From positions 1 through 64,000 of IMG/VR virus record IMGVR_UViG_3300010882_000011: DNA of 64,000 nt; one strand, written 5' to 3'. The notes under the pieces are model-generated. The model was given only the letters and a program-made list of their open reading frames with translations. It was not told the DNA's origin and did not search any database. Positions 25,230 to 64,000 of the stretch are shown here, piece by piece. The stretch's first letter is position 1. Each line of letters starts with the position of its first letter. The DNA is from a virus (taxonomy: Duplodnaviria > Heunggongvirae > Uroviricota > Caudoviricetes). Position numbers and translations under genes: made by a program.

Positions 25230-25440
25230 AACTGAAGAAAAATTTCACGCTATAGGTTGACCTTAGTAACACCCTGCGTGATGAAAAATAACGCTATACG
25301 TTATTAACAATAATAAATTATCATTAATAACACCTGTCGTGATTATAAAATTTTTTGTACAAATAATAGTAATGAAATTTTGTTATTAATAATAATTTTT
25401 GTATATTTGTGGAAATAATCCTATACATTATTAATATGCC
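25230..25440. promoter_or_regulatory. iteron-like repeat region / putative replication origin and divergent promoter
   Basis: Two copies of TAACACC(C)TG(C/T)CGTGAT and four copies of a TTATTAATAA-type palindromic motif in a strand-switch AT-rich region just upstream of an HTH protein gene. Confidence 0.45.
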
Positions 25441-25984
25441 AAAAATTCAAATACATGAGCAACAACGCTCAACCAGAATTGATCCTGAAACAGGAGAAAT
25501 ACTAGATGTACAAGTAGTGGAACAAATACGTCATGTCAAGAAAGTTTCTAACTATGACGAATTCATTTTTGTATATTTGAATGACATGAGTTCATTTTTA
25601 CGTTTAGATAACGGAACTCAAATCAAATTATTGTCATTGATATGAAGAGATGTTTCTTTCAATCCCGAAGGAACAAGTGAAGGTAATGTTATCACAATAT
25701 TAAAAGAAGACAAAGAAAAATGAGCAGAAGAAATAGGAGTATCATACGGTACTATTAACAATGCTATACCTGTATTGGTAAAAAAAGATTTGTTAATTTC
25801 TATTAGTAGAAGTAGATATAAATTAAATCCTAAGTATTTCTTCAAAGGTACTTCAAAAGATCGCTCGAAAATCTTAAGAATGGAAATTAATTACCAAATT
25901 GATGAGGTTGCAAAAGAAATTATTGCAGCGGAAAATATACCTGATAAAAAATTTGATTATAGTTCAAGAGAATATATATCATAG
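25436..25984 (+). CDS. HTH DNA-binding protein (RepL-like replication/regulatory candidate); 2 in-frame TGA read as Trp
   Basis: Track ORFs 25409..25645 and 25775..25984 share one frame; the joined product includes ...LSLIWRDVSF... and an HTH-like GVSYGTINNAIPVLVKKDLLI; ends in TAG. Confidence 0.45.
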
Positions 25985-26362
25985 TAATATGCAGAAAAAT
26001 TGTGGTGATAATGGATTTTAAGATTGTTGAGGAAGAAGAGGTAGCCATACTGGCTCCTCATCCACTCAACAAAAAAATATTTTTCTAAAATAACCAAAAA
26101 CCAAATCACCTTTGAGGGTAATCCAAAAATAGACTACCCTCTCACCACTTTATTAACAATTTATATAGTTTGTGGAACTCGTTTAACAACTTCCACTACG
26201 TAATATCCACTTTCAATTCAAGGATGTTTCTGAAGCATTCAATAATGTAATCCTTCTTTATACACACCCTCAAAATTTTGAATGTAACAATTACCGATGT
26301 TACTACGAAGCAAATTATTGTGTGGTGAAACAAATTGCCCCACCACACAAATAAATTTCTGT

Positions 26363-26890
26363 TTATGCGAAGTATTCCGCATTCTTTGACGGAGTTCCGA
26401 ACTCAATAATAGCGAAATCTCTATCAATAGTTTTCGCAGTCGGCTGACGATTTTCATCAAATACCGTAGTGGCAACTTTCATCGTACCGTTCACAACAAT
26501 GGTCTTTCCTAACAAAGATTCAATTCGTTGCGCATCATCGATATAATTGTTTGCCAAATTACGAGAAAAATCACAAGCATAAGCATCTGCCGTTGCTCCT
26601 CTTCTACGCAATGTACCAGCACTCAACCATGCAGGATTTCCGTTTTTCACTACACCTACTAACACACTTTTTGGACCATCAACAGGTCTCAAAGGGTCAA
26701 CAGTTACGGTTTTCGTTCTCAATGTTTCAAACGTTTTAGGAAATGATACTTCATCACCATCGTTTAAACCATTACTTGCAAATGGAACACCTGATGCTTT
26801 CAAAGCTGCTCTTGCATCTTCAACATCTGTTACTACAATACCAGTTCTCGCTTTAATTTCGGGGAACTCTAATTTTTCAAAACTTTTCAT
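26363..26890 (-). CDS. hypothetical protein, paralog of 27110..27634
   Basis: Shares the motif DVEDARAALKASGVPF...DGDEVSFP with the neighbour's KVEGLEALKTSGIRYG...HGDVITFP; standard code; TAA stop. Confidence 0.5.
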   Translation of the reverse strand: MKSFEKLEFPEIKARTGIVVTDVEDARAALKASGVPFASNGLNDGDEVSFPKTFETLRTKTVTVDPLRPVDGPKSVLVGVVKNGNPAWLSAGTLRRRGATADAYACDFSRNLANNYIDDAQRIESLLGKTIVVNGTMKVATTVFDENRQPTAKTIDRDFAIIEFGTPSKNAEYFA

Positions 26891-26916
26891 TTTTATTTCT
26901 TTTTTTAAACTGTATT

Positions 26917-26953
26917 TTACTACGTGCAGGTATTTTACTACGTCTTAGTGGGG
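26917..26953. promoter_or_regulatory. direct repeat (2 x GTATTTTACTACGT) upstream of 26363..26890
   Basis: Two 14-nt copies 4 nt apart, immediately upstream (on the minus strand) of the gene start. Confidence 0.35.
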
Positions 26954-26977
26954 AAATTCAAATGTCTTAGTCGGCTC

Positions 26978-27016
26978 TGAAAAAAAGAGACCCTCCCAAT
27001 TAAGGGAAGGTCTCTT
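26978..27016 (-). terminator. rho-independent terminator of 27110..27634
   Basis: Stem gagacc(c)tccc/gggaaggtctc with a 6-nt loop; a T-run follows on the minus strand. Confidence 0.55.
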
Positions 27017-61152: not shown

Positions 61153-61212
61153 AATAAATTAAGATGTTTTGGTGGGAGAAATCCCACCAGACATTTTTTA
61201 TAATATGTAAAT

Positions 61213-63045
61213 ATGGATAGTATAATAAATAATTCCTATGTAGTTGGTGTGGGTGGAAGAAACCTAGTATTAAGTACATTGGGAAGAATATATGTTAAGG
61301 TAGGAGATAGATATACGGAGTTAGATTTTAATAAGTTAGTAAATAGTCAAGGAAGTTCATCTGGAAGTACAGAAGAAAAGTTACCAGATATAATTGTTAT
61401 TGATTCTCAAAATGATTTAGCTAGTTTAGAATTTCCTGGAAATAATAAAATAGTTATCTCTAATGATAATAATTTATGACTAACTAGCAATGATAGATAT
61501 GAGGCTTTTGATTTTTCGGCTAATATACATTCTTTAGCTTTAGAAGATTTAAGCGTAAAAAATCAAGTTGCATTTGAAGTTACTAATGAAGCACCTTTTA
61601 TTGTTAATAGTAATGCTTTAGTTGCCAACTTGAATGCACAATTTTTGGACGGAGTAAGGGTAGATGAACTGGCTATTAAGGCGAATGATGAGGTTATTAC
61701 AGGAGAATGGGGTTTTAAGGAAAAGATTAGTCTTAATGGGGCTATTGTAGATAATACTATTAGTAATTGATTGGGAAATACAGTAATTGATTACAAAAAC
61801 GATATTATAACAACTGATGTTCTAAATGTACGACAAATAAATTTTCCACAAGAGAATACGTTAATACATTTGACAGGAGGTCTTCCTGGAGAAATATGAC
61901 TTCATAAAGAATTTGATATATCGAATGTGCAGTGGTCTGATATAGTTATTGATAGTTATTCTAACTTTAATATCATACAAGAAGCTTATAATTGTGGTTA
62001 TTTATCTAACTCTGTTTATAGTGGTATATATGATACGATAACAGATGTTCCCATTGAATTTTGATATAATATATTTCTTTCGAATTATGTTATTATAGAC
62101 GATGACAATCCTCCGATTATTAGAGATTTAACAATAACAACTGAACTTAATTATGTAAACGTTCAATTATCTAGTAATCAACTTCCTGATATCTATAACT
62201 ACATAAAGGTATTTTATGCTCTCTTTCGGATGTCTGGAGAATCTGTTACAAACTATTTTCAAGTATTAGTTCCCAATTTAAATTTAGTTAGTTATCCAAG
62301 TTTGTTTCCAAATATGATTATTAAAAGTTCTGATAATCAAGTAAGAGCGGCAATTTTATTAACCAATCGACAAGACAATTTCATAATTGTACAATTAGAT
62401 ACTTCAGGTAACCAATTTTCAAATCAAACCAAATTCGTTGTGGGGGGCCATCTTTATGATCCTCAGCTAAAACCCTCTATAGTCCTTAATTCTCACTCCA
62501 ACAAATATCCATTTATTGATATTTTAAAAAATGCGAATTATAACTATGAATATAACTTTGGAGAAGAAACTGGCACTGACATTCCATATAATCTAGAATT
62601 AGCTGATAACAATAATGTATTATGCAGAAATGGAGTAATGGATGGTTTAGCTGAAGATATAACCTTCAAAAAAATGAAAGGTGCTGGAATTTTTATGAAT
62701 GGCAAGGAACTTCTTAAGCTTCAAAACCTTAGTGATGTTAATATAGCTAAATTGGAGAATGACAGTGGAATTTATATTAAAAATCCAACAATAGCATTTG
62801 GAAGCGATACTACTATTGATTTACCAGCTGCGACCTTCTTTTTACCAGATGGATCGGGACAGATTGCAGGAGGAAAGTTAAAGTGAACCGCCGATACTCT
62901 AAGTATCGGAGCTTCAACAGCGACTATTCAACCTTTAACAATTAACTTAAGACATTATAATACAGGTGCTCTCATATCTACATACACATACGATGGAAGC
63001 CAACCGTTAACAATTGATATACCAATTCCTGTTCCAGGAGTATAA
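61213..63045 (+). CDS. tail fibre/baseplate-associated protein (~610 aa), 5 TGA
   Basis: Track ORFs 61213..61479 and 62230..62886 are in frame 1, joined through 5 TGA; TAA stop. Confidence 0.45.
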
Positions 63046-63050
63046 ATTTT

Positions 63051-63587
63051 ATGGAAAAATGAATATATTGACTAATAATAGTCGGATTAATAGTACTTTC
63101 CATATTCTCTATTAGAGGATGTGTGAAAGCTAAAAATGCACCAGAACCTGGAATTACCATCATAGAAACAAGAGACACTGTTGTTAATTGAGACACTATA
63201 AAAATAGTTGAACCTAAACTAATAACAGAAAAGGTTGTAGATTATATCTACATTTATCTGTGGGATACTGTTGAGGTAGTATTACCAAAAACACAGAAAT
63301 TCTATGCTGATTCAAATTATAAGGCTTGAGTTTCTGGTTATGAACCTAATTTGGATTCTTTAGAAGTTTACGAAAAAGAAACACTAATAACTCACTTAAT
63401 ACAAAAAACAATAGTAACTCAACCTAAACGTTTTGGATGGTGTTTCTATGCTGGAGTTGGTGGACAATATGGAGTTATTCAAAGGAAGTTTGATTTTGGC
63501 CCACAAATTGGTGTTGGATTTTATGTGAGACTTGAAAAAAAGAAAGAACCTAAAATTTCGATTGAAGAATTACCCAATGAAAAATAA
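63051..63587 (+). CDS. membrane-anchored protein (~178 aa), 4 TGA; possible lipoprotein/spanin-like
   Basis: MEKWIYWLIIVGLIVLSIFSIRGC... has an N-terminal TM or signal with Cys; track ORF 63351..63587 is in the same frame. Confidence 0.4.
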
Positions 63588-63599
63588 TTATATTTTCAT

Positions 63600-63664
63600 T
63601 TTGTAAGTGCAAAATAAAGTTGTATTTTTGCAAAAATTAAATATGAATTAATAAGTTAAGTATT
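63600..63664 (+). promoter_or_regulatory. putative promoter (TAnnTTTG-like TATTTTTG, repeated TGCAAAA)
   Basis: ttgtaagtgcaaaataaagttgTATTTTTGcaaaaattaaat upstream of the last gene. Confidence 0.3.
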
Positions 63665-64000
63665 ATGGCAGCTACTACAGCATGGGATGGGCAAAACGCT
63701 CTATTAGAAGATCCAATTGATAATGATTATCAAATAGACAACAGGCCACAAATCACGGATATAACTGGAATCTTAGATGAGCCAGTTGATGATACTCCGC
63801 ATGAGCCTCAAGATGAGGATGTAATGCACTTGTTCTTGAAGGAGCGTGGTATTAAAGATCCGTCCAAAATAACGTTTGAAAACGATGAAGGTGAAACCGA
63901 AGATGTTGACTTTAACTCACTTTCACGTGAAGAACAGTTGACAATTTTACAAGAAATAACTAGTCCAGGTCTTACTGATCATGAGACAGATGTTATTAAT
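63665..64000 (+). CDS. acidic hypothetical protein (partial, continues past window end)
   Basis: MAATTAWDGQNALLEDPIDNDYQIDNRPQITDITGILDEPVDD... in an open frame to the window end. Confidence 0.45.
   Translation, partial: MAATTAWDGQNALLEDPIDNDYQIDNRPQITDITGILDEPVDDTPHEPQDEDVMHLFLKERGIKDPSKITFENDEGETEDVDFNSLSREEQLTILQEITSPGLTDHETDVIN

Follow-up and report, generated by a model that had tools for sequence, protein, structure and literature searches.

The 64,000-nucleotide (nt) stretch analysed here, positions 1 to 64,000 of the IMG/VR virus record IMGVR_UViG_3300010882_000011 and hereafter the window, comes from a tailed phage whose genes fall into two blocks that differ in their use of the codon TGA. 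The left block carries auxiliary and early-type genes, all on one strand, that do without TGA, whereas the genes of the right block, for packaging, tail and lysis, use TGA as a sense codon that appears to specify tryptophan (Trp). A candidate decoder, a tRNA with the anticodon UCA, is encoded a short distance to the left of the window and bears a second hairpin whose loop resembles the anticodon loop of tRNA-Trp. The features discussed are collected in Table 1.

Table 1. Location of the features discussed (window positions, unless a locus is named)
Feature	Position	Strand	Details
TGA-free module	1..24359	- (all genes)	Auxiliary/early-type genes; no genuine in-frame TGA, no TGA stop
tRNA-Met(CAU)	8162-8235	-	ARAGORN and Rfam tRNA model
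tRNA-Glu(UUC), two copies	17361-17433, 17612-17685	-	ARAGORN and Rfam tRNA model
Small gene ending TGA-TAA	22070..22267	-	Only spot in the window where TGA could be a stop; TAA backs it up
tRNA-Pro(CGG)	23130-23203	-	ARAGORN and Rfam tRNA model
Block with TGA as sense	25409..64000	both	25 genes, 89 TGA; reaches the window edge and may continue beyond
TGA-free gene pair, left edge of the recoded block	26363..26890 and 27110..27634	-	No Pfam or PHROG match
Putative virion-associated cell-wall hydrolase, 1078 amino acids (aa)	29342..32578	+	12 TGA, 0 TGG
Gene with Listeria-Bacteroides repeat domain, flanking the endolysin gene	32802..33524	-	6 TGA, 3 TGG
M15 (VanY-type) endolysin, 131 aa	33524..33919	-	phrog_465, E = 7e-34; Pfam VanY
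Gene flanking the endolysin gene	33919..34710	-	3 TGA, 2 TGG
Large terminase (TerL), crAss-like, 761 aa	39459..41744	+	phrog_6681, E = 3e-62, residues 85-716
Portal, 739 aa	42102..44321	+	phrog_6547; Pfam P22_portal
Tail-fibre/tail gene run	45262..63587	+	Collagen-like, phage-fibre and Ig-like repeats; 1720-aa fibre; 39 TGA, 50 TGG
Opal-suppressor tRNA(UCA), 94 nt	L009 19221-19314, some 7 kb to the left of the window	- (window orientation)	ARAGORN; Rfam tRNA model, 60.7 bits
Similar CCA-arm tRNAs (among others)	L054:12376-12471, L080:1126-1222(-), L183:8971-9066		
tRNA(CUA) with YUG arm, examples	L363, L379, L410, L441, L451, L479, L492		IMG/VR

Two blocks with different use of TGA

Open reading frame (ORF) coverage was measured from stop to stop over positions 25,436-64,000, with a minimum ORF length of 100 aa. 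It amounted to 0.70 under the standard code and to 0.96 with TGA as sense, and a control in which TAG was taken as sense reached only 0.75. Gene calls, which were greedy, non-overlapping and scored by codon usage, were made with translation tables 11 and 4. With table 4 the coding density of the interval 25.4-64 kb rose from 0.67 to 0.89 (from 0.68 to 0.91 for 28-64 kb) and the mean product length from 172 to 432 aa, as the number of genes fell from 50 to 26. At 1-25.4 kb, the choice of table left coding density unmoved (0.577 vs 0.579).

The codon counts divide the window along the same line. The right module comprises 25 genes and 11,069 codons, which include 89 in-frame TGA and 76 TGG; its genes stop at TAA (20) or TAG (5), never at TGA, and the 11,069 codons are free of frameshifts and of in-frame TAA or TAG. 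In the left module, 23 genes of 4,919 codons contain 60 TGG and three nominal in-frame TGAs, two of which lie in spurious 5' extensions ahead of the real start, while the third is a terminal TGA followed by TAA. The distribution of TGA against TGG differs between the modules with a Fisher p of 3e-13. Off-frame TGA is plentiful in both (362 left, 688 right), so the avoidance operates at the level of the codon and is not a compositional absence. All 50 genes called in the window terminate at TAA (43) or TAG (7), and the GC content of the window is 35.5%. The base 3' of an in-frame TGA is A in 47% of cases, as compared to 35% after other codons and 26% after TGG, a marginal difference (p ~ 0.04).

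These results agree with most of what a preliminary description of this DNA had claimed. It had placed TGA as a sense codon in roughly 25.4-64 kb, and coverage, density and codon counts bear this out far beyond chance. The ORF pieces from which it argued are indeed separated by real TGAs (in the portal gene, the pieces at 42792, 43074 and 43440 follow TGAs at 42789, 43071 and 43410), the restored genes close with TAA or TAG as it had stated, and the re-call that it had proposed, table 4 vs table 11, raises density and mean length at 25.4-64 kb and not at 1-25.4 kb. Its figure of about 90 TGAs was accurate (89), but they occupy about 25 genes where it had counted some 35, and its ratio of about 2:1 in favour of TGG has to be corrected, as TGA is slightly ahead (89:76).

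The same organization continues in the genome from which the window derives. A PurA-like protein of the window was matched residue for residue on two European Nucleotide Archive (ENA) metagenome contigs of 170,034 and 170,139 bp, which show 69 and 6 differences from the window over a 12.2-kb overlap (99.4% and 99.95% identity). On the first contig, the window spans roughly 58.5-122.5 kb. Because the two contigs begin at different points of the same sequence, they suggest a complete, circularly permuted genome of about 170 kb. About 84 kb of this genome was inspected, including the window and a 21-kb locus of the first contig, L009, that overlaps the left part of the window (the 99.4% identity over 12.2 kb applies to it), and at least nine tRNA genes were present there. 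L009 contributes 32 genes and 6,433 codons with 84 TGG and no TGA (stops 28 TAA, 4 TAG). The TGA-free block thus runs at least 9 kb beyond the left end of the window, and over its length of 34 kb or more it has 144 TGG and no genuine TGA.

The TGA-bearing block is where the genome encodes packaging, tail and lysis functions. Its TerL gene has in-frame TGAs at 39693, 39888, 40266, 40488, 40953 and 41733 (residues 79, 144, 270, 344, 499 and 759, the last of them outside the phrog_6681 match). The portal gene has four, at 42789, 43071, 43347 and 43410 (residues 230, 324, 416 and 437), and the endolysin gene has two (residues 101 and 119); neither uses TGG. Full-length TerL, portal and endolysin were obtained under table 4 only. 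The endolysin gene and its two neighbours form a minus-strand cassette (32802..34710). TGA and TGG are unevenly shared among genes, with ratios of 12:0 in the hydrolase, 4:0 in the portal and 2:0 in the endolysin as compared to 6:19 and 0:4 in the fibre genes at 55990-61152 and 47366-48943. The preference of the lysis genes for TGA fits the published tendency of lysis genes toward the recoded codon, and the TGG-rich fibre genes may be recent or mosaic acquisitions.

Several features of this block were recorded separately. The TGG-rich fibre genes sit in a slightly GC-richer stretch (52-60 kb, 0.37-0.38). A C-terminal module of about 70 aa is common to the fibre genes at 45262-47355 and 47366-48943, a 169-aa segment is common to 47366-48943 and the 1720-aa fibre (55990-61152), and the N-terminus is duplicated between 48951-49337 and 49337-50803. 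No template/variable repeat of the kind found in diversity-generating retroelements was seen in the window. At the left edge of the block, the two TGA-free genes (26363-26890 and 27110-27634) are of similar size and adjoin a strand-switch zone at 24.4-25.4 kb.

The amino acid at TGA positions

The phage has no near-identical counterpart among GenBank phages by megablast with 16 kb and 12 kb of the window. Its nearest TerL is 47% identical in a phage collection and 67% identical in a large protein database. At 26-29% identity to the TerLs of Crassvirales, the protein groups with those of phages of Bacteroidota, and the portal matches crAss portals at 20-26% identity, which is too divergent for inference from single columns. 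The window is taken as part of a crAss-like gut phage that most resembles the "Zeta" group. The crAss signature genes, namely MCP, a giant RNAP, an IHF-like gene and the primase/helicase set, lie outside it. Among the relatives, the genetic code varies: the standard code is used by MT835470.1, TAG recoding by MT835539.1, and TGA recoding by the loci L001-L004 and the window phage. The TerL homologues P0033 and P0038 (1134 aa) contain an intein (Pfam PF05204, PF05203), as published for Zeta-group phages; neither intron nor intein was seen in the TerL of the window. A scan of the whole MT835470.1 record found no tRNAs at all, and a scan of the 55-kb fragment MT835539.1 found a tRNA(UUA) and no tRNA(CUA). 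In the latter (locus L580), the tRNA(UUA) is 85 nt long (6356-6440, minus strand) and lies near a 91-nt class-II-like tRNA with the anticodon CCA (6082-6172, minus strand).

The identity of the encoded amino acid was examined with all window TGA positions masked as X before every alignment. Among 120 TerL homologues, the six masked columns contained Trp in 120, 120, 120, 116, 115 and 69 sequences (the last column with 50 gaps). This test is partly circular, since the homologues that were checked are TGA-recoded themselves (5 and 10 TGAs in TerL) and the database translations had already assumed Trp, and relatives that encode Trp by TGG only were therefore used instead. TGA and TGG do exchange at the same Trp columns among recoded relatives.

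Two relatives met this description. MT835470.1 has a TerL and a portal free of in-frame stops, both 43-48% identical to those of the window, and of the nine window TGA positions that align with it, five are Trp (TerL 79 and 144; portal 230, 324 and 416), the remainder being Tyr, Tyr, Phe and Asn. MT835539.1, with 45 in-frame TAG codons in its portal gene and TGG still the codon for Trp, has Trp at seven of the nine, the others being Tyr and Phe. At portal positions 230, 324, 416 and 437 the first relative reads Trp, Trp, Trp, Phe and the second Trp at all four, each of these Trp residues being encoded by TGG. Pooled, the comparisons yield Trp in 12/18 and an aromatic residue in 16/18. Gly, Cys, Ser and Arg occurred in none of the 18 masked comparisons, nor at TGA positions in distant TerLs or in M15 structures. 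Code 25, in which TGA stands for Gly (Gracilibacteria, Absconditabacteria and phages), was rejected on the same counts.

More distant comparisons point the same way. Standard-code Crassvirales TerLs have Trp at the position of TerL residue 144, and at residue 344 two of three have Trp and the third Phe. Endolysin residue 119 falls on the invariant Trp of the GGDW..PH motif in the structures 23ri, 8q2g, 5opz and 2vo9 of the Protein Data Bank (PDB), and residue 101 falls on a variable column of the same alignment. The Trp content of the right module is 1.49% when TGA is counted and 0.69% when it is not; the left module and the TerL homologues, as references, have 1.22% and 1.41%. Together, these data support Trp as the residue encoded by TGA in the right module, on evidence that is independent of assuming code 4.

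The assignment to Trp in a code-4-like manner had been part of the preliminary description, and the TGG-only relatives, with Trp in 12/18 and no Gly, uphold it. Its claim that the TGA in the PHxEL motif of the endolysin encodes a conserved Trp is likewise borne out by the four M15 structures; the alignment of M15 domains that it had suggested places residue 119 on a conserved Trp and residue 101 on a variable column. The profile searches that it had suggested on table-4 translations returned the terminase, the portal and the M15 domain of the endolysin. They gave less for the 1078-aa protein, whose C-terminus is glucosaminidase-like (Pfam Glucosaminidase, E = 9e-5) and whose N-terminus, with an SHH..G.A.D / H-W-H motif, weakly resembles M15 (Pfam M15 families, E = 0.015-0.09), both under the family cut-offs. 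An EPWH-type motif of a VanY/M15 peptidase had been proposed there at about 29834; the TGA of H-W-H does lie at 29834, but the M15 assignment stays below threshold, and a PDB sequence search with this N-terminal domain produced chance-level matches only.

The probable suppressor tRNA and its extra arm

ARAGORN and the Rfam tRNA model found no stop-reading tRNA inside the window, where four ordinary tRNAs are the only ones. The tRNA(UCA) of L009 belongs to a cluster of tRNA genes (Asp, UCA, Pro, Leu, Arg) that share the strand of the TGA-free genes. It has a 7-bp acceptor stem (AGGGGAA/UUCCCCU, with A1-U72, G2-C71 to G5-C68, and G73), a 4-bp D-stem, a 5-bp T-stem, which gives a 7/5 acceptor/T architecture, and the anticodon arm CCAGU-CUUCAAA-ACUGG. 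The determinants of bacterial tRNA-Trp are the discriminator G73, the first base pair and the anticodon (PMC9976931), and all of the bacterial Trp identity set is present except C34, the decoding anticodon being UCA. This tRNA most likely decodes TGA. The approximately 84 kb inspected showed no gene for tryptophanyl-tRNA synthetase (TrpRS) and none for a release factor (RF).

The length of 94 nt is due to the variable region, which forms a second hairpin, CUGGU-GUCCAAA-GCCAG, with a 5-bp stem and a 7-nt loop. The loop matches positions 32-38 of the anticodon loop of tRNA-Trp (N-U-C-C-A-A-A). Other phages in IMG/VR were sampled for this feature by two scans that used the 15-nt UCA anticodon arm only and by one that also required UCCAAA before the T-arm, with ARAGORN run on all loci; the tRNAs so sampled are phylogenetically non-independent, which applies to all arm counts and p values given here. 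Sixty-eight distinct phage tRNA(UCA) were picked by the anticodon arm alone. Of normal length were 21, a hairpin with U-CCA in the middle of a 7-nt loop was present in 31, one could not be parsed, and 15 were of other kinds, namely 12 resembling the tRNA for selenocysteine (Sec) and three with CCA-containing loops of slightly different geometry. The CCA arm, with a stem of 4-5 covarying base pairs, is thus found in about half (31/68), or in roughly 60% if the Sec-like tRNAs are left out, and none of the 68 has a variable-arm loop with CUG or UUG.

Across all loci there are about 53 distinct members with a CCA arm, whose acceptor stems are diverse but conserve U72 and G73. Their loops read GUCCAAA (24), CUCCAAA (19), UUCCAAA (5) or otherwise (6), and canonical phage tRNA-Trp(CCA) in the same loci has the loop CUCCAAA in 16/16. 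Thirty members, drawn by locus reference, were aligned with plain MAFFT; in this alignment the extra helix was 93% paired, three of its four pairs varied on both sides and one pair occurred as five pair types; paired cells over the whole structure dropped from 98% to 39-48% after the 3' partners were slid. The same loci contain 55 long tRNAs with other called anticodons, and UCCAAA was found in only two of them, both family members with a mis-called anticodon. A single CCA-arm locus (L315) has proteins in common with the genome under study, and the tRNA type is therefore one that has spread over unrelated phages and not a marker of lineage. Unlike canonical class-II arms, the arm is joined by 4-6 unpaired nt on each side.

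A parallel scan of phage amber suppressors, tRNA(CUA), revealed a comparable arm. Those of 84-99 nt have a variable-arm hairpin of 3-5 bp, with 14 distinct stems and the loops CUCUGAA (12), UUCUGAG (10), CUUUGAA (4), UUCUGAA (3) and others (2). All of these loops are of the glutamine (Gln) anticodon type, with CUG or UUG at the anticodon positions (Y-U-CUG/UUG-A-R). Among 92 distinct tRNA(CUA) picked by the anticodon arm alone, 43 were short, 26 had the YUG arm, 23 were other or unparsed, and none had a CCA arm. The cross-table of arm triplet against decoded stop is 31/0 for UCA vs 0/26 for CUA (Fisher p = 8e-17). At the loci themselves, the gain in ORF coverage was specific to TGA as sense in 23/38 of those with UCA and a CCA arm (specific to TAG in 2/38), and to TAG as sense in 17/23 of those with CUA and a YUG arm (specific to TGA in 1/23). 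It follows from the cross-table and the coverage gains together that the triplet of the extra loop goes with the amino acid to which independent protein evidence assigns the recoded stop.

What the arm does is a separate matter. We tentatively propose, at a little under even odds, that it may serve as a natural pseudo-anticodon, in which the host TrpRS or glutaminyl-tRNA synthetase (GlnRS) would find the cognate anticodon while the real one reads the stop codon. The idea bears on a question that Borges et al. had left, how phage suppressors get charged; these authors found only Gln and Trp reassignments where the code of the phage differs from that of its host. A different explanation, only slightly less probable, is that the arm is unrelated to TrpRS: it could be a relic left when an anticodon arm was duplicated, act as a structural spacer, lure away an anticodon nuclease or a modification enzyme, or be a class-II arm of the type read by seryl-tRNA synthetase (SerRS). 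With its unpaired linkers, the reach of the arm to the anticodon-binding domain of TrpRS is indeed hard to picture. However, the N-U-CCA-A-A loop is kept over 30 or more distinct stems and acceptor stems, with covariation in the stem, and a neutral relic would decay. The dependence of the loop triplet on the recoded amino acid speaks against a function unconnected with charging as well, as does the fact that the Trp and Gln synthetases are the two strongly anticodon-dependent systems. No description of a natural variable arm that mimics an anticodon was found in open-access papers and preprints, and the searchable text of Borges et al. and of the Mgcod work has no mention of an anticodon-like variable arm.

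A two-dialect genome and its relation to known systems

We interpret the window as part of a two-dialect genome, in which a TGA-free auxiliary and early block stands beside a late block that uses TGA for about half of its Trp codons and is probably read by the phage tRNA(UCA); we put the probability of this reading at about 0.9. The labels "early" and "late" are themselves inferred from gene content. Since TGA is absent both as sense and as stop from a module of at least 34 kb, that module is translatable by a standard-code host, and following Yutin et al. and Borges et al. its genes would be expressed from the start of infection. The tRNA(UCA) would then accumulate and be charged with Trp, presumably by the host TrpRS, and ribosomes would come to pass the 89 or more TGAs, such that terminase, portal, tail and lysis proteins might be completed only after the switch of code. 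As no gene ends in TGA, suppression would not extend phage proteins.

Several points weigh against this reading. The Trp assignment is read entirely from sequence comparison, and some TGA positions carry Tyr, Phe or Asn in relatives, although those columns are unconserved and have little weight. The tRNA(UCA) is read from a contig that is 99.4% identical and not from the window, and with about 84 of some 170 kb inspected, a second suppressor, a phage TrpRS or a release factor may be present in the remainder. [quoted passage not shown] The standard-code host, for its part, is suggested by the TGA-free module, by the relatives with other codes and by the literature on hosts of crAss-like phages.

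Among the alternatives, a host that itself uses code 4 (Mycoplasma or Spiroplasma-like Bacillota, or other bacteria with TGA for Trp), which the phage would follow with no switch of code, is improbable. It would agree with the lack of any TGA-terminated gene in the window or L009 and with the low GC content (35.5%), but it does not explain why 144 TGG and no genuine TGA are found over 34 kb or more, right beside a block with 89 TGA and 76 TGG. Nor does it sit well with a phage that carries its own tRNA(UCA), with close relatives that use the standard code or TAG recoding in the same genes, or with a TerL that groups with those of Bacteroidota phages, the hosts predicted in the literature for recoded crAss-like phages being standard-code Bacteroidota. 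Still less probable is that TGA encodes another amino acid, such as Gly (code 25), Cys or Sec, or Ser. ARAGORN does label the tRNA "SeC", and reviews list its traits, a length of 94 nt, an extra arm and G73, among those by which SerRS identifies tRNAs; however, the masked comparisons gave Trp in 12 and Gly, Cys, Ser or Arg in 0/18, and endolysin residue 119 coincides with an invariant Trp. Sec in particular is contradicted by the 7/5 architecture with a 4-bp D-stem, as bacterial tRNA-Sec is 8/5 with a 6-bp D-stem, and by 89 sites in 25 genes, a number incompatible with insertion dependent on a Sec insertion sequence (SECIS). That the TGAs are untranslated, as marks of pseudogenes, of assembly or sequencing errors or of low-level programmed readthrough, is favoured by nothing beyond the interruption of frames under table 11 and is effectively refuted, given that every interruption is a TGA, with no TAA, TAG or frameshift in 11,069 codons, that independent assemblies of other samples hold the same genome, that relatives have TGA in the same genes and often at the same Trp columns, and that essential genes (TerL, portal) are among those affected.

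The TGA-free block has features of its own. Its products include a glucosaminidase, PurA-like, CoaE-like and NMNAT-like proteins, an SPFH/NfeD pair and a metallophosphatase. The PurA-like adenylosuccinate synthetase (1117-2247), the NMNAT-like cytidylyltransferase (6036-6464) and the CoaE-like kinase (6457-7077), all on the minus strand, belong to a cofactor gene cluster that continues just left of the window (L009 13273-18381) with a nicotinamidase/isochorismatase, an NAPRTase, an NAD synthase and a phosphoribosyltransferase. This nucleotide and cofactor cluster looks like a phage-encoded set for NAD salvage. A pair unusual in phages consists of an SPFH/Band_7 (flotillin-like) protein of 573 aa, which has a long coiled tail rich in Ala and Glu (8422-10143, minus strand), and a small NfeD-like membrane protein encoded next to it (10149-10655, minus strand). 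At the left end (1-175) there is an imperfect repeat with 6-nt and 18-nt periodicity, (GCCAKM)n, whose minus strand encodes the Gly-X low-complexity part of a gene that leaves the window.

Recoding of TGA to Trp is already known for phages of this kind and is in itself of low novelty. The preliminary description had implied otherwise, but block-wise reassignment of TGA to Trp in late genes has been published for crAss-like and other gut phages. The window is nevertheless a clean textbook example of a two-dialect phage genome, and one in which annotation under table 11 breaks up terminase, portal, lysins and tail fibres, roughly doubling the number of pieces. The suppressor arm that mimics an anticodon is apparently unreported in natural form. 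It provides a concrete hypothesis for the charging of phage suppressors in standard-code hosts, could help to spot divergent suppressor tRNAs that are now flagged "SeC" or low-confidence, could let the tRNA alone predict the amino acid of a recoded stop, and could supply natural scaffolds for genetic-code expansion.

The nearest precedents are the crAss-like phages themselves. Yutin et al. 2021 (PMC7886860) described 243 of them with TAG reassigned to Gln or TGA to Trp, mostly in the late-gene parts, and Zeta branches, with genomes of 145-192 kb, that use TAG, TGA or the standard code. The phage described here resembles Zeta phages in its size of about 170 kb, its crAss-like TerL and portal, its block of tRNA genes, the use of TGA for Trp mainly in structural, TerL and lysis genes, the suppressor tRNA(UCA) and its code-switching relatives. 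A Zeta paper of 2025 (PMC12386605) reported the phage Lera, in which 41 ORFs contain TGA and a tRNA-SUP-TCA is encoded, and its Table S1 lists tRNAs of 92 and 94 bp, entered with neither anticodon nor sequence. [quoted passage not shown] Borges et al. 2021/22 reported code-4 phages (Agate, Jade, Sapphire) and code-15 phages (crAss-like, Lak, Garnet, others) of standard-code hosts and proposed a role in late and lysis regulation. As in those phages, the recoded stop is concentrated here in structural and lysis genes, early genes are compatible with the standard code, and suppressor tRNAs are present; in contrast to the Jade phages, whose code change module consists of a suppressor tRNA, TrpRS and RF1, the present phage shows neither TrpRS nor RF in the approximately 84 kb inspected. 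The gene finder Mgcod was written for block-wise dual coding, and proteomic validation of recoding has been published for other phages (PMC9523058). Cellular code 4, as in Mycoplasma and Spiroplasma, also reads TGA as Trp through an anticodon UCA and never as a stop, but there the host and its whole genome use one code, whereas here a large part of the genome shuns TGA and the decoder is phage-encoded.

For the tRNA, the comparison extends to molecules of other origin. Like tRNA-Sec and the allo-tRNAs, it has the anticodon UCA, a length of about 95 nt, an extra arm, G73 and the ARAGORN label "SeC", but it is of the 7/5 type (theirs being 8/5, 8/4 or 9/3) with a 4-bp D-stem and a conserved NUCCAAA loop in the extra arm, which the 12 true Sec-like tRNAs of our survey lack. 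The closest likeness of the arm itself is synthetic. In the constructs of Mukai 2020 (PMC7590224), a GUG pseudo-anticodon engineered into the variable arm modestly raised histidylation by a histidyl-tRNA synthetase fused to an extra anticodon-binding domain. There, as in the phage tRNAs, a variable-arm hairpin copies the cognate anticodon arm of a stop-reading suppressor; the difference is that those molecules are synthetic allo-tRNAs for His (GUG), whereas the phage tRNAs are natural, of the 7/5 type, and mimic Trp (CCA) or Gln (CUG/UUG). Anticodon-like loops outside an anticodon arm are also known from the E. coli thrS operator and the tRNA-like structure of turnip yellow mosaic virus (TYMV), where they are read by an aminoacyl-tRNA synthetase. 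Those mimics reside in an mRNA leader and at a viral 3' end, respectively, whereas in the phages the mimic is a second arm of the decoding tRNA.

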